The translations under genes were made by a program, and so were the position numbers. A stretch of DNA of 6,295 bases. It comes from a virus (Duplodnaviria > Heunggongvirae > Uroviricota > Caudoviricetes). Positions 1-6,295 of this stretch are shown here, in pieces. The stretch's first letter is position 1. Each line of letters opens with the position of its first letter. The notes under the pieces are model-generated. The model made no database searches, was not told the origin of the DNA, and saw only the letters and a list, made by a program, of their open reading frames with translations. The stretch lies in the IMG/VR virus record IMGVR_UViG_2671180298_000001. One strand, given 5' to 3'.

Positions 1-1748
1 CGAATACTGATGCCGGAAGCAGCCTTTTTGGTCACAATCACCGTACAGTCGGTGATATTGCCTGCCCCCTGATTGCCTTTCTGGAAAATCTTAAACTCCA
101 GAGTGACGCTTCCCCTGCCACTCGGCATATCAATAACCGCACTGTAACTACCGGGAATGGCCCCTTTAGTTTCTCTGGATGCGATTAATACGCCGTTTTT
201 GCGAACTTCAAAACCATAACCCGTGTATCTTGTACCTCCCGGGTTATTACCACTTCCCGGATCGCTATACGCTATTCCGTTAAAGATAATGGGCGGAATA
301 ATAATCTGGCGGTCAAAGTTATGATCATCGCTGATGGTGACTGTAACCGTACCGTTTGGTGTTTCCGTGTTACCCCACGTACCGACTTTTTTCGGGAAGG
401 CTTTTGATACAGCTTTAACGAAATCCCCTCTGACCTGGGTCGCCTCCAGCATGCCCTTAATCGTACAGTTCTGGTTAATCGTGACATTGTTGAGCGTTCC
501 TGAGTTCGCATTCACACTACCACTGATATCCGCATTTTTAGCGGTCAGCTTTCCGTCTGATGTCAGGGAAAATACCGGAGGACTGCCACCGCTGGTAATG
601 GTGGGGGCCGTCAGGCGTTTCAGGAACACTTCATTCATGAATATCTGATCGCCCTGACCAACAAACATCGGCTTTGTGTTGCCATTCGCAGGATTAATCA
701 TCGCAATCCTGTCTGCTGCCAGCAGCACCTGACTCTGCATGCCGTCAGGGGTGTTCTCAATACCGGCACCGATACCCGCAATATAAAGGCGTCCGTCCTG
801 CATCTGCTGCAGCTTCACTGCCCACATGCTGTTCAGGTTATTATTTGTATCAACCTGAACCTTCTGTATCTGCTGGATTGCCGCACTCTGGTCTTCCAGT
901 TTCTTATTGACGGTCTGTGTTATTTCATTGCTGACATCCGTTATGGACGTCCTGATTTCAGTCAGGTCAGGCGCAAGCTGACCGTTATCAATCTGCGTCC
1001 ACAGCTCCTGAGCCAGATGGGTTTTCCCTATCTCGCCTTTGAAAAAATCCAGATAGCCTGATGCATCATCACTCGGCTGACCGACAGCCTCCACGAATGC
1101 CGATTTGCCAACGGTGTTCACACTGCGAACGTAAAAATAATAATCATGGCCCGGTTTGATATTGATACTGGCGGCTATCCAGTACAGTGCCGTACCAAGA
1201 TAACGCGCGCTGGTTTCAACCTGCCTGATATCCGCAATCCGTTTTTCCGAGAACCAGAACTCAAACTGTACCGTCGGGTCATAAACCGCAAGATGCGGCG
1301 TGGCGGTTATCTGAAAATAGCCCGGCGTCAGCTCAATCCGCGACGGCGCTGCCGGTGCGGCAATCCGGAACGATACCGACGCCGGATCGCCCTGCTGCCC
1401 CCACGCATTTACTGCCCGGACTGTCAGCCTGTAGTTCCCCAGAGCCAGTTGTGTGAAGCGGTAAGTGGTTTCCGTCGTCCGGGCCGTGCTGACCAGCCGC
1501 TCACGGCCGTCATCCGCTGCCACGGTCAGGCGAAGCAGGAAGCTCACGCCCTTCACCACCTTCGGCGTGTCCCAGCGCGCCAGCACCTGGTATTCCCCGC
1601 TGTCTGCGGTGACTTCTGCGGTCAGGTGCTGCACCGCTGGCGGCGTGACACCATTTACCGTGCCGCTCTGGTCGCCGTCAAAGTGCGCCCCGTTATCCAC
1701 GATGGCCTCTTTTTCCGGTAACCGGGGCAAATGATGAGTATCGTCCTG
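1..1748 (-). pseudogene. J: 3' portion (about 582 codons, running past the window start) of a lambda J-type host specificity / central tail fibre gene; no ATG start and no N-terminal half
   Basis: Minus-strand frame translated by hand is open from the codon after the V stop (1748) to position 1 with no stop. It reads ...[133 protein letters not shown]...[25 protein letters not shown]...[14 protein letters not shown], which matches my memory of the fibronectin-III-like middle region and C-terminal part of lambda gpJ. First in-frame ATG is only at 827..825. The ORF track misses it because there is no stop inside the window. Confidence 0.8.
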
Positions 1749-2492
1749 TTAACCTGCGGCGCTGACAGTCACCGCAGCCACAGCCACAAAATTCCCGTCA
1801 GCGGTCATGCCCACAATGCTGACACTGCCCTGCTTCACGCCTTTCACCGTGGCTACAAGCCCGTTCAGGGTCACCGTGGCAGTCTGTGGATCTGACGAAT
1901 GCACACTGATCGCTTTGTCACTGGCTCCGTCAGGTTTTACTGTAAAGGTCAGCGTGGTGGTTGCTCCCACTTTTACACTGGCAGATGCCGGTGCCACCGT
2001 CAGCCCGGTAACGCTCACTGTTTCAGTGCCTTCCTCTGCCAGATACGGACGCCCCACACCGCTGATTTTCACAGTGCGGGTCATCACGTCTTTTGAGGCA
2101 ATGGTTTTACCCAGTGAACTCAGCCAGCCACGGAAAACATCAACAGTGCCGTTGGGATATTTGATACGAAACGCGCAGACTTCACCGGAGTCGAACAACT
2201 GAACCAGTTTTTTCTGCCCGCTGTCACCCGGACGCCAGGCCAGCGTCGCCGAAGTATCACCGACTGATTTCTGCCCCTGGGTTGTCGTTTTCCAGTCTGC
2301 ATCTTCATCATCGAGATAAGTGTCATCTTCTGCATCAGCGGTCATTTCGCCAGGTTGTAGATCCTTCACCATCGCAAGACGCAACCAGTCAGTGTCCGAC
2401 AAAGGGTTCGCAAACGCATCGCCGTTGCCGGTATACATCCAGAACGTCGTTCCCGCACCTTTCGTTTTTGCCAGTGGATTTGGTGTGGTCAT
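1749..2492 (-). CDS. V: major tail tube protein, lambda gpV-like, with C-terminal Ig-like (Big_2) domain; 247 aa
   Basis: Protein MTTPNPLAKTKGAGTTFWMYTGNGDAFANPLSDTDW...YPNGTVDVFRGW... aligns along its length with remembered lambda gpV (246 aa). Start chosen at ATG 2492..2490, preceded by AAGGAGGTG with about 5 nt spacing; the track ORF (2567) begins 25 codons upstream inside the U gene. Stop TAA 1751..1749. Confidence 0.9.
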   Translation of the reverse strand: MTTPNPLAKTKGAGTTFWMYTGNGDAFANPLSDTDWLRLAMVKDLQPGEMTADAEDDTYLDDEDADWKTTTQGQKSVGDTSATLAWRPGDSGQKKLVQLFDSGEVCAFRIKYPNGTVDVFRGWLSSLGKTIASKDVMTRTVKISGVGRPYLAEEGTETVSVTGLTVAPASASVKVGATTTLTFTVKPDGASDKAISVHSSDPQTATVTLNGLVATVKGVKQGSVSIVGMTADGNFVAVAAVTVSAAG

Positions 2493-2502
2493 TACCACCT
2501 CC

Positions 2503-2916
2503 TTAATTCGTGTACGTGATCTGGTACGTGATTTCCGCCATCGCCCAGGTGGCCATCTCATTATCACGTTGATAGTTAAAACCGAGTGGGATCAGGGTGT
2601 CGATGAGTCCGGAAAGTGCCGGTACATCATTCAGGGCCGGGAAAATGGTGCTCTCCATCCACATATCCAGCTCTGAATCCGGTGCCTGTGCCCGGATGAA
2701 GACAGCAATATGCAGAACAGCCTGCCAGTCATCTTCATCCGTCATTTTTCCGGTGTACTGAGCATCACTCAGCCACACCGCCACGGCAGGCAGTTCCTGC
2801 GCATCAACAAATGCCGGAAGCCCGTCAAAAAACGTGGCGCTGTCTCCACACTGTTCCCGAAGGCGTGCCAGTACGACCTGGCGGATTTGTGTATGTCGAT
2901 TCATCGGGTCAGCCAT
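2503..2916 (-). CDS. U: tail terminator protein, lambda gpU-like (alternative start at 2904 would give 133 aa)
   Basis: ...ATFFDGLPAFVDAQELPAVAVWLSDAQYTG...APDSELDMWMESTIFPALNDVPALSGLIDT...ITYQITY matches remembered lambda gpU (ATFFDGRPAVFDE...PAVAVYLTGAEYTG...PDSELDAWMESRIYP...LTYVITYEM). ATG 2904..2902 overlaps the Z stop as ATGA, as in lambda Z/U; ATG 2916..2914 has GAGG only 2 nt upstream. Start uncertain between the two. Confidence 0.85.
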   Translation of the reverse strand: MADPMNRHTQIRQVVLARLREQCGDSATFFDGLPAFVDAQELPAVAVWLSDAQYTGKMTDEDDWQAVLHIAVFIRAQAPDSELDMWMESTIFPALNDVPALSGLIDTLIPLGFNYQRDNEMATWAMAEITYQITYTN

Positions 2917-3479
2917 AACCTCAGTTGTTGTTTCAGTGCATACCCCAGCTGTTTCGGCATTTCCGCAGCAATGATGCGGTCGCGGGCATCTTCAAATGCC
3001 TGTGTCAGCGGTCCGGACAGAGGGATTTTCACCACATCAATGGGGTAACGATTTTTGCCATCAATACGCCGCATCACATGCCAGCGACCATTCGCCAGTT
3101 GCTGAATAAACGCATCCCGGAAAAGATATTTACCCACCTTCAGCACGCTGCCACGGTACTGCAGTTTTCCACCACGCCGGGTCAGTCTGACCCGGGCGGT
3201 CCCCAGCTTAATGGCAGGCAGATTGCCCCGGTTAACGCGGATCCTGGCCGTCATTTTTCCTGACGGACTGGCTTTAAACACCCGGACACGCTGACGTACC
3301 AGTTTCAGGGGTATCCCTTTCACCTGGTTATCTCCCGCAACGGTATTCCCGGCAACCTGCCGGGTGGCAACCGAGACCGCTTTCTGTGCCACACGGTTTA
3401 TCGCCCATGCGCTGGCCTGTGGCACCATACGGGTATCAAGGCTGTTCAGATTGCGGATGGCATTCTCAAGCCCCTTCAT
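2901..3479 (-). CDS. Z: minor tail protein, lambda gpZ-like (tail completion); 192 aa
   Basis: 192 aa, the same length as lambda gpZ, basic protein, located between the FII-like and U-like genes exactly as in lambda. SD-like AGAGGTG about 5 nt upstream of ATG 3479..3477. Assignment is by position and size more than by remembered sequence. Confidence 0.75.
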   Translation of the reverse strand: MKGLENAIRNLNSLDTRMVPQASAWAINRVAQKAVSVATRQVAGNTVAGDNQVKGIPLKLVRQRVRVFKASPSGKMTARIRVNRGNLPAIKLGTARVRLTRRGGKLQYRGSVLKVGKYLFRDAFIQQLANGRWHVMRRIDGKNRYPIDVVKIPLSGPLTQAFEDARDRIIAAEMPKQLGYALKQQLRLWLTR

Positions 3480-3490
3480 CCCACACCTCT

Positions 3491-3766
3491 TTACTCAATA
3501 AAGATCATTGGCTTACCGTTAAAGCGTTCATGCCGTGTGACCGTCCAATGTTGTCCGTCATAAACAACGCGATCCCCGCGCCGTGGGCGGTATCCCGAAG
3601 AAAACACCACCAGAGAGACCGCAGGTCCGGACAAAGCATTCAGCTCTGCCAGTGTTTCTCCCGGGATCACAGTCATATCGACATCATTAATCGAGGCTGT
3701 CTTTCCCATCTTTCTGACCGTGATCGCATCCATACGCGCTGCCAGCCGGGAAAAGGGATCAGACAT
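3491..3766 (-). CDS. head-tail joining protein, lambda gpFII-like; 91 aa
   Basis: N-terminus MSDPFSRLAARMDAITVRKMGKTASI resembles lambda gpFII MADFDNLFDAAIARADETIRGYMGTSATI, and it sits directly upstream of Z. Start ATG 3766..3764 overlaps the stop of the preceding gene by 8 nt (translational coupling); no separate SD. Confidence 0.65.
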   Translation of the reverse strand: MSDPFSRLAARMDAITVRKMGKTASINDVDMTVIPGETLAELNALSGPAVSLVVFSSGYRPRRGDRVVYDGQHWTVTRHERFNGKPMIFIE

Positions 3767-4082
3767 TGAGTTTTACCGGCACTTCTTCTGCACTGGTTCC
3801 GGCATCTGCCCAGACAACCCCGACCAGCGGATCAGAGCCGCTGTTAGTCAGCTGAACTTTTCCGGACTTCAGATAAACCTTCTTACCCGTTTTCATGTCA
3901 TCCGTTTTCAGCTTAGGCAGCATAAACACACCTTCGGTCAGGCCGTCGCCTGTTTCACCCTGTGGAATATCGGTCAGCGCCACCGCAAAAACATCACCCA
4001 CCTGCACCAGGTCTCCGCTGCTGATGGCTGCACTGGCAACAATCGCCACCGTTTTTCCTTCTTCTACAAAATTCTTTGCCAT
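3759..4082 (-). CDS. small acidic phage head protein of the DUF2190 type (family often mislabelled as RecA/RadA recombinase in prophage annotations); 107 aa
   Basis: Protein MAKNFVEEGKTVAIVASAAISSGDLVQVGDVFAVALTDIPQGETGDGLTEGVFMLPK... Sits in the position lambda uses for D/FI, between capsid and FII. Start placed at ATG 4082..4080 with GGAG 6 nt upstream; the track start at 4127 lies inside the terminator hairpin region and is rejected. Confidence 0.6.
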   Translation of the reverse strand: MAKNFVEEGKTVAIVASAAISSGDLVQVGDVFAVALTDIPQGETGDGLTEGVFMLPKLKTDDMKTGKKVYLKSGKVQLTNSGSDPLVGVVWADAGTSAEEVPVKLNV

Positions 4083-4095
4083 AACTGTCTCCGCA

Positions 4096-4114
4096 CAGCC
4101 CCGTTCAGGGGCTG
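4096..4114 (-). other. perfect 7-bp GC-rich stem-loop (CAGCCCC-UGAAC-GGGGCUG on the transcript) ending 2 nt before the SD of the DUF2190 gene
   Basis: Plus strand 4096-4102 cagcccc and 4108-4114 ggggctg are exact reverse complements separated by 5 nt. No U-run follows in the transcript, so not an intrinsic terminator. Confidence 0.5.
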
Positions 4115-4125
4115 ATTTCAGGTAC

Positions 4126-4145
4126 AAAAAAAGCCCTTACGGGCC
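4126..4145 (-). terminator. candidate rho-independent terminator (probably partial) about 24 nt after the capsid stop
   Basis: Minus-strand transcript reads GGCCC-GUAA-GGGC followed by UUUUUUU (plus strand caaaaaaagcccttacgggcc). The stem is only 4-5 bp, so likely weak or attenuating. Confidence 0.4.
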
Positions 4146-4168
4146 ATCAGAGTTGTTGTCTGCGACGT

Positions 4169-6127
4169 TTACGCCGTACATTTCACCAGACCGCGGTGAT
4201 CAACTGGCGCGACACCGGCGTCAATACGCACTTTCGTTGTCACGCCATCCACACTGAAGCCCTCCATCTGATCAATATATGGCGTATCCACACCGTTGAG
4301 ATAAGCCACTTCAATCGTATCGGAGCCTTTTGACGCAGCCAGGTAGAAGGTGGTCTGGCTGTTATCATCAAGACGGGGCTCTGCAATAACGGTCGCAAAA
4401 TCTTTCACCGGGTTAATAATACCGGCGTTAATGTCAGCCCCCTTGACACTTGAGGAGCGAATGACCTGGTTAGCAACAGACTCCATCGCCGTCGGTACCA
4501 GTACGAACGCAGGACGAATATTCAGATGACGCTCCCCCTCTTTCTGAACGCGCATCAACTGGCGGGCTTTATCCAGCGATGCCACGTCCATTGCAGCGCT
4601 CTCCAGTACGTTTGCATGTTTCGCTTTATCGAACAGACTTACATTATCTGTGGAGATTTTCGGGTTAGACGTCAGAATGGCATAAACCAGATCGGCAATA
4701 GTGGATTTCGCCGCACGGCCCAGTTTCATCGGGACATCGGTCAGCATATTCAGATCATCATTGATAATGGCCTGACGGGTGATACTGAACAGCTCGCCAT
4801 AGGTCGCCAGTGCAATAGTGGCCTGTTTATCTCCGGTGGTGACGTATTTATATTCCGCCCCTTCACGCACCTGACGCAGAGCACTGAAGCCCCCCATACC
4901 CACACGATGGGCAATTTTAAAATCAGACAACTGACCTTTCCGCGTCCACTGTTCATAGGTTTCAGGGGCATCTTCCCAGCCCTGCAGAATGGCTTTGTTC
5001 GCAACATCCAGCAGAATATTACCGAAGTCAGACGTACTGTGTGTGAACGCCGCACCGACCATCTGCATCGGGTTATAACTGGAAACCCCAATACCCCGTT
5101 CAGTCAGTGACATACGGGCATATTCACGCAGGGTCATCCCGTTGTAGACATTATCACGTTCGGTTTTTTCAAATCCGGCACGCGCCATCAGCGCCTGGCG
5201 GATCCCGTCCCCCACAAAATTACCGTTTCCGGCATAAATATGAGCCGGGGTATTTTTATTGGATGGCGTGGACTCGCGCCCCATCTCGTTCAACAGCTTT
5301 TCGCGGGCCTGCTCCAGCGAACATTCAGGATCGGCAAGACACTGAGCCTGCAGCGTCTGATAACGCCCGCCAAACATGGCAAACAGATCATTAATACCGT
5401 TTACACGCGCTTTTTGCTCTGCCAGTACCTGCGCACGGATACTGTTTTCATCCACCACGGGTGCTGCTGCCTGCACTGGCGTCCGGGAGGCTGCAGGTTC
5501 ATCATCCTGTACGCGTGGAGCACTGTTGCGTGGCGGAGTAATCATGTTTCGAATGGATTCCGGCATCTTTTTAAATTCCTCTGTACGTTTTGACTGAATA
5601 CATGCCATTGCCTTAACGGCTGGCGTCACCTGATCAGCAAATCCCTGTGCCAGACATTCGGCACCGGACATCCAGGTCTCATCCGCCAGCATGGCAGCAA
5701 TTTCATCGGTGGTTTTCCCGGTTTTCTGTGCATAAGCGGGTAACAGAACCGCCTCAACCTTATCGAGCAGGTCGGCATAGGTGCGCATGTCCTCCGCATC
5801 ACCGCCCGTAAAGCCAAATGGTTTATGAATCATCATGAAGGTGTTTTCCGGCATAATGACCGGGTTTCCCACCATCGCAATGACCGACGCCATTGACGCC
5901 GCCACACCGTCGACATAAACGGTAATGGACGCACCATGTGTTTTCAGCGCATTAAAAATGGCGATGCCTTCAAAGACATCGCCACCCGGTGAATTAATAT
6001 GGAGATTAATGTGGGTGATATCGCCCAGTGCATTCAGATCACTGATAAACTGCTTCGCTGTAACACCCCAGAAACCAATCTCGTCATAAATATAAATATC
6101 CGCGTCACTCTGGTGACCAGCCTGCAT
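4169..6127 (-). CDS. prohead protease (ClpP / S14 family) fused via a scaffold-like linker to an HK97-fold major capsid protein; 652 aa from the chosen start
   Basis: N-terminal part has ClpP hallmarks: IYIYDEIG...INSPGGDV...VDGVAASMASVIAMVG (serine motif, Ser codon 5896..5894) and MMIHKPFGF (histidine, codon 5827..5825). Middle is a low-complexity, helix-prone linker (ENSIRAQVLAEQKARVNG...LEQAREKLLNEMG). C-terminal ~330 aa look like a phage major capsid protein. Start set at ATG 6127..6125 (MQAGHQSDADIYIYDE), 13 nt after the stop of the upstream gene; the track start at 6292 would overlap that gene. Confidence 0.85.
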   Translation of the reverse strand: MQAGHQSDADIYIYDEIGFWGVTAKQFISDLNALGDITHINLHINSPGGDVFEGIAIFNALKTHGASITVYVDGVAASMASVIAMVGNPVIMPENTFMMIHKPFGFTGGDAEDMRTYADLLDKVEAVLLPAYAQKTGKTTDEIAAMLADETWMSGAECLAQGFADQVTPAVKAMACIQSKRTEEFKKMPESIRNMITPPRNSAPRVQDDEPAASRTPVQAAAPVVDENSIRAQVLAEQKARVNGINDLFAMFGGRYQTLQAQCLADPECSLEQAREKLLNEMGRESTPSNKNTPAHIYAGNGNFVGDGIRQALMARAGFEKTERDNVYNGMTLREYARMSLTERGIGVSSYNPMQMVGAAFTHSTSDFGNILLDVANKAILQGWEDAPETYEQWTRKGQLSDFKIAHRVGMGGFSALRQVREGAEYKYVTTGDKQATIALATYGELFSITRQAIINDDLNMLTDVPMKLGRAAKSTIADLVYAILTSNPKISTDNVSLFDKAKHANVLESAAMDVASLDKARQLMRVQKEGERHLNIRPAFVLVPTAMESVANQVIRSSSVKGADINAGIINPVKDFATVIAEPRLDDNSQTTFYLAASKGSDTIEVAYLNGVDTPYIDQMEGFSVDGVTTKVRIDAGVAPVDHRGLVKCTA

Positions 6128-6140
6128 CCTGAACCAGGAA

Positions 6141-6295
6141 TTATTCTTCGGACTGGTCGTCGGTGTGCTGCGGCTCCTGTCGTTTCGTTGCGGCACTGCT
6201 GCCTCCTTTATCACTGGCCGGATCGGTATCAAATACCAGATCCAGCTTGCGGTTTTCATCAATTTCGGCCTTGCGCTGAGAGATCCCCTCATAAT
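6141..6295 (-). CDS. 3' end of upstream gene, probably the portal protein (partial, continues beyond window end)
   Basis: A different minus frame is open from the window edge to TAA at 6143..6141 and reads ...YEGISQRKAEIDENRKLDLVFDTDPASDKGGSSAATKRQEPQHTDDQSEE*, a hydrophilic acidic tail typical of a real C-terminus. The third frame has a stop at 6291..6289. Portal identity is inferred from the conserved portal-protease-capsid gene order only. Confidence 0.5.
   Translation of the reverse strand, partial: YEGISQRKAEIDENRKLDLVFDTDPASDKGGSSAATKRQEPQHTDDQSEE

Follow-up and report, generated by a model that had tools for sequence, protein, structure and literature searches.

The capsid-cement junction of a lambdoid late region

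The window analyzed here, a stretch of 6,295 nucleotides of viral DNA, is a lambdoid late region of the mEp460/cdtI type that carries head-tail genes; its positions 1715-6279 are 98.4-99.3% identical to the head-tail region of mEp460, cdtI, phi458, and Ayreon. Throughout the window, the long genes all lie on the minus strand and, according to the mEp460 annotation and Pfam, follow one another in the order portal, gp05, an 86-nt spacer, gp06, gp07, Z, U, and V. Gp05 contains PF00574 (ClpP) at residues 23-168 and PF25209 (capsid) at residues 352-649, and the counterpart of gp06 in mEp460 is labelled 'head decoration'. The original prediction had named the two genes correctly, the "DUF2190" family of the downstream gene being Phage_cement_2 (PF09956). 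Apart from the spacer, the junctions consist of gaps of 13, 11, and 10 nt and of two overlaps of 8 and 16 nt, and the 86-nt spacer does stand out among them, as had been claimed. In mEp460, the gene of the Q-like antiterminator, gp50, lies just upstream of the lysis genes and, across cos, of the head genes. The features of the junction and the genes that frame it are as follows.

Ending at 6141, minus strand: portal gene (end from the mEp460 annotation)
4169..6127, minus strand: gp05, a fusion of a ClpP-type prohead protease and the major capsid protein in one 652-aa open reading frame (Pfam; boundaries from mEp460, 98.6-99% identical)
4171..4169, minus strand: gp05 stop codon TAA
4168..4083, minus strand: spacer, 86 nt
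4146..4168, minus strand: variable 3' untranslated stretch from the capsid stop to hairpin 1 (21-31 nt long in 18 representative loci)
4132..4145, minus strand: hairpin 1, GGCCC-GUAA-GGGCU, with a core of GCCC (4144..4141) and GGGC (4136..4133) plus a G4145-U4132 wobble
4126..4132, minus strand: U7 tract, the first U of which can pair with G4145
4115..4125, minus strand: single-stranded linker GUACCUGAAAU (family consensus AUAYCURAAAY)
4096..4114, minus strand: hairpin 2, CAGCCCC (4114..4108)-UGAAC-GGGGCUG (4102..4096), a perfect 7-bp stem
4095..4093, minus strand: UGC between hairpin 2 and GGAG
4092..4089, minus strand: Shine-Dalgarno (SD) sequence GGAG, with 6-nt spacing before the gp06 AUG
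4082..4080, minus strand: gp06 start codon AUG
3759..4082, minus strand: gp06, a 107-aa head cement/decoration-family protein (Pfam PF09956 Phage_cement_2, E = 2.3e-20)
Ending at 1749, minus strand: V, the major tail gene (end from the mEp460 annotation)

On the transcript, the spacer reads UAA-N23-G-GCCC-GUAA-GGGC-U-UUUUUU-GUACCUGAAAU-CAGCCCC-UGAAC-GGGGCUG-UGC-GGAG-ACAGUU-AUG. Both predicted hairpins and the U7 tract are present at the positions given earlier, except that hairpin 2 is separated from GGAG by 3 nt (UGC) and not by 2 nt. Further, the short GC stem that was described upstream of the U tract exists but is effectively a 4-bp G-C stem, the outer fifth pair being formed in fewer than half of the relatives. 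The folding energy calculation that had been proposed as a check was run, and it set the two structures apart. Hairpin 2 folds at -13.2 kcal/mol (-13.9 kcal/mol with its flanks) and, taken with short flanks, is unusual compared with dinucleotide shuffles, only 1/200 of which were as good (z -3.6), whereas hairpin 1, at -8.3 kcal/mol (core -6.7 kcal/mol; -8.8 kcal/mol with flanks), is less so (z -1.8; 11/200 as good). The 101-nt stretch as a whole folds at -34.8 kcal/mol (z -2.1). A simple terminator scan detected hairpin 1 but reported 7 sites in the window compared with 6.9 expected by chance. It reported nothing on either strand at hairpin 2, the stem of which is followed by UGCGGAGACAG and not by a U tract; hairpin 2 therefore cannot terminate transcription. 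Rfam covariance models gave no match at E <= 10 on either strand of positions 3900-4400. By itself the terminator pattern is not significant; what lends it weight is how the junction is conserved and covaries among relatives.

Conservation of the spacer and covariation of hairpin 2

When a single DUF2190 protein was used as the query, the relatives found were 98-100% identical and almost without variation. An alignment of six DUF2190 proteins, searched against one genome per species, gave 48 loci, and a DNA-pattern scan of viral contigs supplied further loci, the combined set holding 54 distinct spacer sequences from at least 13 genera of Enterobacterales (Escherichia, Salmonella, Klebsiella, Citrobacter, Enterobacter, Pluralibacter, Pseudocitrobacter, Yokenella, Ewingella, Rahnella, Pantoea, Sodalis, Edwardsiella, and Proteus). 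Homologous spacers that keep both hairpins occur in Stx-phage 1720a-02, mEp213, Fels-1, Gifsy-2, and a Klebsiella phage, the capsid genes of which show only ~69-77% DNA identity. The layout common to the 54 relatives is GCCC-N4-GGGC, U7, the linker (11-12 nt in most, with the AUAYCURAAAY consensus), a hairpin with a stem of 6-8 bp in 49/54, a gap of 1-3 nt in 48/54, and GGAG, which precedes the start codon by 5-10 nt. We note that an in-frame TTG at 4127 was considered as the start of an extended gp06 and rejected, as the reading frame is not kept among relatives: the U tract and the start codon are 39-46 nt apart, with all three classes modulo 3 represented (22/21/11).

Outside the Enterobacterales (Pasteurellaceae, Microbulbifer, Pseudomonas, Duganella, and others), the spacer between capsid and DUF2190 genes usually contains one longer hairpin of 6-15 pairs and -11 to -23 kcal/mol, 22-52 nt from the start codon and followed by a U tract in some cases but not in others; in a few distant relatives the spacer is missing altogether. 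Together with the lambda hairpins described below, this makes a hairpin behind abundant head genes a general lambdoid trait, of which the tandem form that abuts the ribosome-binding site (RBS) is the Enterobacterales variant.

Mean pairwise identity among 18 representative loci varies strongly along the junction. The lowest value of all segments belongs to the untranslated stretch ahead of hairpin 1 (0.48), and an sRNA released from the capsid 3' untranslated region, which we also considered, is unlikely on this account. Within the spacer, conservation is highest at hairpin 1 together with U7 (0.91), followed by the linker (0.76, compared with 0.63 for the first 90 nt of gp06), the stretch from the SD to the start codon (0.74), and hairpin 2 (0.60); the last 90 nt of the capsid gene stand at 0.72. 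GCCC-N4-GGGC is present in all aligned relatives, with three pairs invariant and a single mismatch and a single G-U at the outermost core pair. The loop sequence varies freely, with 12 different versions, and only 17-23 of ~50 relatives form the fifth, outer pair. The U tract has exactly seven U in 54/54 distinct relatives. Hairpin 1 is so nearly invariant that covariation in the alignment of relatives cannot be scored for it.

For hairpin 2, covariation is evident. When relatives were aligned with MAFFT alone, without fitting to a structure, changes on both sides were seen in 5 of the 7 pairs of hairpin 2 and 84% of its cells were paired, and the two hairpins together give a covariation score of 0.222, compared with 0.107 in column shuffles (0/500) and 0.04-0.09 in controls in which the partner was slid along the same alignment. 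When the alignment was fitted with a covariance model, 90% of the hairpin 2 cells were paired and the score was 0.251; RNAalifold independently predicts both hairpins. There are 32 distinct 5' arms among the relatives, as illustrated by CAGCCCC/GGGGCUG in the window, CCGGCAC/GUGCCGG in Gifsy-2, GGCCUCUC/GAGAGGCC in Edwardsiella, CGCCCC/GGGGCG in Rahnella, and CCGGUC/GACCGG in Pantoea. Variation this free, in both stem and loop, speaks against recognition by a sequence-specific protein.

The loops of hairpin 2 also reveal the strand on which it acts. Of 28 distinct hairpins with a four-base loop, 17 carry UNCG or GNRA in the sense reading (binomial p = 3e-16), compared with 2/28 in the antisense reading, where ~1.3 would be expected by chance. 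Because UNCG and GNRA loops stabilize RNA but not DNA, this indicates that hairpin 2 is selected as sense RNA. The same observation bears on the idea that hairpin 2, read on the plus strand, is an antisense terminator, so that the spacer would form a face-to-face bidirectional terminator. On the plus strand, the complement of the linker does put RUUUY immediately behind the hairpin, whose stem is rich in G-C; however, only 3 T occur in the 8 nt after the stem, the terminator scan missed the site, and the fixed distance to the sense-strand SD would have no explanation. We consider this reading very unlikely and rejected it on the grounds of loop orientation and the weak T run.

The original prediction had also offered the second structure as a possible RNase III site, in the manner of the intercistronic R sites of T7. 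RNase III needs roughly two helical turns of double-stranded RNA, and the stems are too short for this, hairpin 2 having just 7 bp and hairpin 1 4-5 bp. A longer alternative fold, in which the arms of hairpin 1 pair with those of hairpin 2, can be drawn, and 86% of the cells can pair in it. Yet this fold shows no compensatory change, does no better than shuffles (500/500), and breaks in 21-25/53 sequences, wherever hairpin 2 has changed; when one such cross pair is forced, the best fold reaches -21.7 kcal/mol, compared with -27.8 kcal/mol for the minimum-free-energy fold and -22.7 kcal/mol for the plain two-hairpin state. RNase III processing at the spacer is accordingly highly improbable.

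Equally hard to credit is a chance pair of hairpins or a linker for recombination at the DNA level that has no function as RNA. It would agree with the number of terminator-like sites, which is no larger than in shuffled sequence, and with the DNA similarity to mEp213, which begins at hairpin 1 and so resembles a mosaic boundary. Against it stand the conservation of the spacer above that of neighboring coding sequence in at least 13 genera and the sense-strand tetraloops, and we rejected it on the covariation of hairpin 2. The second structure of the original prediction is thus borne out by its perfect 7-bp stem, compensatory changes, RNAalifold prediction, and sense-strand tetraloops. Overall, we conclude that hairpin 2 is a real, selected, sense-strand RNA structure whose shape is kept while its sequence is free, and, judging from the comparison of relatives, the spacer as a whole is a real, conserved element that appears to be functional as RNA.

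Possible roles of the two hairpins and the linker

The reading of hairpin 1 as a terminator is already known from GenBank annotation: a rho-independent terminator is marked at this position in the records of mEp460 (NC_019716), mEp213, mEp043, and Ayreon. The spacers of mEp460, cdtI, and Ayreon are 100% identical to that of the window and hold the same element, and those of mEp213 and mEp043 are homologous. In the mEp460, mEp213, mEp043, and Ayreon records, hairpin 1 alone is marked, by prediction, and hairpin 2, the linker, and their conservation are unannotated. New here are the comparative layout and the recognition of a tandem module with a covarying hairpin beside the RBS. We call hairpin 1 a terminator because of its form, the strictly kept U7, and its position, which is never less than 21 nt beyond the capsid stop. 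With respect to form, it has a G+C-rich stem, a loop within the 3-8 nt range, an adjoining U tract, and the sense orientation; with respect to placement, its distance from the stop codon is 24 nt in the window and 21-31 nt in the 18 representative loci, and so it lies outside the footprint of a terminating ribosome. A stem of 4-5 bp is at the short end of known intrinsic terminators. The stem is weak (-6.7 to -8.3 kcal/mol) and is kept weak in all genera, which fits a deliberately leaky signal. Alternatively, a 4-bp stem may be unable to stop even unmodified polymerase, in which case the strict conservation of U7 would call for a different explanation.

The original prediction took hairpin 1 to be a partial terminator that sets the ratio of capsid to accessory protein. 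As an intrinsic terminator, it has the sequence hallmarks, the GenBank labels, and the conservation on its side; a ratio-setting role in the lytic cycle is doubtful. In a lytic-cycle version of this model, partial termination would leave more capsid mRNA than downstream mRNA and so set protein ratios. The canonical terminator features, the invariant U7, and the weak stem all suit it. Further, mEp460 has a second annotated rho-independent terminator after the major tail gene V, so that its terminators follow the genes of the two most abundant virion proteins. There is also a precedent in T7, where the single terminator T-phi lies right after capsid gene 10 and transcript abundance falls downstream of it (PMC6938266). 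T-phi is like hairpin 1 in being a single terminator directly after the major capsid gene; it differs in its long, strong hairpin, in having no second hairpin, and in serving T7 RNA polymerase with no antitermination system, and because T7 has its own polymerase the analogy is loose. Against the model, the operon lies downstream of the Q-like antiterminator. Q forms a nozzle at the RNA exit channel, and Q-loaded polymerase precludes terminator hairpins, as described in PMC9388147. Moreover, the next gene belongs to a cement/decoration family, the product of which is probably needed near capsid stoichiometry, by analogy with the lambda decoration protein gpD. Sampson et al. are also said to have attributed the ratios of lambda late gene products mainly to translation initiation (PNAS, 1988), and this result counts against ratio-setting at hairpin 1 as well. 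On balance we regard lytic ratio-setting as unlikely, though it keeps a real share of the probability.

Somewhat better placed, but still improbable as a full account, is the proposal that hairpin 1 is a safety terminator that works only in lysogens, against stray transcription that is not antiterminated, with hairpin 2 unrelated to it. Such a role is compatible with Q bypass and is one of the possibilities raised for terminators inside operons (PMC8022706), and the late genes of Gifsy-2 are silent in published lysogen transcriptomes (PMC7067206). It does not explain, however, why terminators should be placed after the most abundant structural genes, nor does it account for hairpin 2, the linker, or the fixed spacing to the RBS. 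A safety terminator is compatible with the explanation that we prefer and does not exclude it.

The explanation that we prefer, to which we assign a probability of about 0.45, combines a leaky terminator that would be largely bypassed by Q-modified polymerase with a hairpin on the RBS side of which only the structure matters, the two together uncoupling the capsid message from the downstream messages. Since a Q-like gene lies upstream and Q precludes terminator hairpins, hairpin 1 would mostly affect polymerase that lacks the modification and would have only a weak effect during lytic growth. Hairpin 1 and U7 would form a minimal, leaky intrinsic terminator that stops polymerase unmodified by Q, for example in a lysogen or after stray initiation, and of the Q-modified polymerase a small share at most would stop there, so that some capsid transcripts would acquire a definite 3' end. 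The thermodynamic character of hairpin 2 and its fixed place beside the SD point to a post-transcriptional role, and we infer that it acts after transcription, on the sense RNA that results from read-through. There it might do one or more of three things. First, it could be a barrier to 3'-to-5' exonucleases that spares the capsid cistron; this role alone leaves the fixed distance of 1-3 nt to GGAG unexplained. Second, after an endonuclease cut in the A/U-rich linker, it could serve as a protective 5' hairpin for the downstream message; this role needs cleavage in the linker, and no RNase E-type motif fits all family members, GAA/AU (the slash marking the cut) fitting the window but not the GAAAC class. 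Third, it could be an insulator that provides a fixed local context for the RBS of the cement gene. Overall, how abundant and how stable the capsid message is would no longer be tied to the abundance and stability of the messages of the downstream genes, with protein ratios still set mainly by translation initiation. An experimental point of reference is EHEC Sakai, in which RNA 3' ends have been mapped (PMC7547250) and which has a homologous spacer in its Stx1 phage Sp15 (VT1-Sakai) and in other lambdoid Sp prophages; a literature search did not find transcript mapping of the capsid-cement junction for any relative.

In the window, the first two G of GGAG are predicted to be unpaired with a probability of just 0.01-0.04, a value that increases if hairpin 2 is flipped or deleted, and the predicted partner lies in the linker, at positions 29-31, in 21/54 relatives. 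This predicted pairing of GGAG with CCU hints at a translational role instead of the preferred one, in which hairpin 2 would act as a clamp that brings the CCU of the linker beside GGAG, partly masks the SD, and tunes cement synthesis. Further, the YCU of the linker is nearly invariant and both spacings to hairpin 2 are fixed. However, the extension adds no more than 2-3 bp and has to span internal loops, the RNAalifold consensus does not contain it, and folding does not predict it in the large CAGCCCC-GCAA class, which has an SD accessibility of ~0.6; both partners are invariant, so covariation cannot be scored. We consider a translational clamp rather improbable.

The leaky-terminator model also leaves unexplained that the linker recurs after other terminators. 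In viral contigs, T7+ATACCTRAAA (the U tract and linker in DNA letters) also follows numerous unrelated terminator stems, beside genes for tail-tube (PF08813), HK97-type capsid (PF05065), lambda-E-type capsid (PF03864), Mu gpT-like head, and probable tape-measure proteins. We scanned viral contigs with the real 17-mer and with two composition-matched controls, each scan giving at least 120 matches. Among the matches listed, the real 17-mer at non-homologous sites abuts a G-C hairpin in 67-69% and has an SD and start codon within 40 nt in 45%, compared with 17% and 15%, respectively, for the first control and 7% and 3% for the second, with the proviso that the control 17-mers occur in more A+T-rich contexts than the real one. 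As a recurrent motif, the linker should be seen as a lead and not as a result. One could imagine that terminator hairpin, U7, AUACCURAAA, an optional second hairpin, and SD form a portable, recurrent cassette in which the linker is a site for a host factor such as RNase E, Hfq, or S1. That is something of a long shot; if true, the cassette would set message stability or translation beside abundant virion genes despite an antiterminated polymerase. We also considered the linker as an IHF site or as a sigma-70, sigma-32, or extended -10 promoter and rejected these candidates, there being no convincing match by eye and the promoter scan being empty.

Related systems and significance

Hairpins inside antiterminated late operons, as a general phenomenon, have long been noted by phage geneticists, and their roles are described as 'not known' (PMC8022706). 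The P22-like phage L, for which that statement was made, has a terminator within its late operon after the procapsid module and resembles the window in carrying a terminator-like hairpin after head-protein genes. In lambda, the D-E spacer contains GCCGC-CUGU-GCGGC followed by U7, likewise after an abundant head gene in a Q-antiterminated operon, and the E-FI spacer contains AUGGCCC-UUCG-GGGCCAU with a U-rich tail, 11 nt before GGAGGAG. Lambda thus has two hairpin types after two different genes, whereas here they stand in tandem with a conserved linker, and the second abuts the RBS.

Two further kinds of system bear on the roles that hairpin 2 might have. The ompA 5' untranslated region carries, near its 5' end and upstream of the RBS, a stable stem-loop that protects against RNase E; protection of this type would require a 5' end at hairpin 2 or only a few nucleotides away from it, and such an end is hypothetical. 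Intercistronic hairpins also direct selective RNA processing and stabilization in puf, pap, and malEFG. In the cip-cel operon of C. cellulolyticum, intergenic stem-loops set subunit stoichiometry by selective processing and stabilization (PMC4423207). The likeness to the window lies in intercistronic stem-loops within a polycistronic mRNA for the subunits of one complex; the cip-cel type differs in that processing has been mapped there and that it has neither the combination with a U7 terminator nor the placement against an SD.

If the function of the spacer is only that of a leaky terminator plus a generic stabilizer, the finding is an ordinary one. It nevertheless provides a clean, well-sampled case in which a sequence-frozen minimal terminator stands beside a hairpin that drifts in sequence, keeps its pairing, and lies 1-3 nt from the RBS, and its role can be tested with few mutants in the cultivable phages mEp460, cdtI, or Ayreon. 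In synthetic operons, the spacer may be of use as a compact insulator. It is also a candidate cis-regulatory RNA motif that is missing from Rfam, and the element is present in prophages of pathogens of the Stx-converting, Gifsy-2, and Fels-1 types.

Reading frames flanking the spacer

The capsid side of the spacer is formed by gp05, a gene listed as follows.

4169-6127, minus strand: gp05, encoding a ClpP-type prohead protease and the major capsid protein in a single 652-aa ORF

As called, this ORF extends to 6292 (707 aa) and crosses the end of the portal gene. On the other side of the spacer, a TTG at 4127 lies in frame with the cement-protein gene gp06 and nominally extends it by 15 codons across hairpin 2 (4083-4127, minus strand). 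We ruled out this extension as coding because the spacer lengths of relatives occupy all three frames.

A deletion joining V to J

We note that the hairpin located 3' of the major tail gene V, GCCCCG-GUUAUU-CGGGGC-U6, a terminator hairpin with the sequence found in phage mEp460, is interrupted within its loop at 1715-1728 on the minus strand of the window (considered together with 1-1720). The broken hairpin is fused to an internal segment of the host-specificity gene J, with at most 6 nt of common sequence at the joint, and a search for the junction sequence in 5,426 complete E. coli genomes found it in none. Over 1200-1800, the G+C content climbs to 0.60-0.66 in the J fragment, compared with about 0.50-0.55 in the rest of the window. 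Two plus-strand features were recorded in this part of the window.

1117-1144, plus strand: sigma-70-like promoter match TTCACA-16-AATAAT (10/12), the sole such match in the window
1146-1721, plus strand: 191-aa ORF, antisense to J, terminating at the deletion junction

The promoter match sits 2 nt upstream of the ORF, and this ORF probably arises only because the J sequence is rich in G+C. The prophage lacks G, T, H, M, L, K, and I as well as the 5' portion of J, and it is therefore defective.

Related arrangements at other genes

In phage lambda (locus L256), two hairpins were found, each at one of the intervals 497-520 and 1564-1591, and neither is marked in record NC_001416.

Between D and E: short G-C hairpin followed by U7
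Between E and FI: hairpin of 7 bp, closed by a UUCG loop and followed by a U-rich tail

The spacer's U tract together with its linker, T7+ATACCTRAAA, also occurs 3' of many unrelated terminator hairpins in viral contigs (loci L257-L342), where the adjoining genes are tail-tube, capsid, and probable tape-measure genes; among the matches listed, it is far commoner in this position than two control 17-mers. A separate, unrelated family in A+T-rich viral contigs (L145, L148, L149, L158, L163, L170, L195, L215, L225, L234, L236, and L246) has in common AAAAAGCCCGGAUUUUUUCCGGGC-U7-AUGGCUAAAUA.UAGU-AUG GCA AAC AAA; it consists of a terminator followed immediately by a conserved gene start. Upstream of a P22-type tailspike gene (PF09008; L155, 2353-2447, minus strand, and L330), a terminator hairpin, U7, and ATACCTAAAAAC are followed by a 9-bp hairpin, CAGGCGTGA/TCACGCCTG, that leads directly into GGAG. 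The layout matches that of the spacer before gp06, with a different gene downstream.
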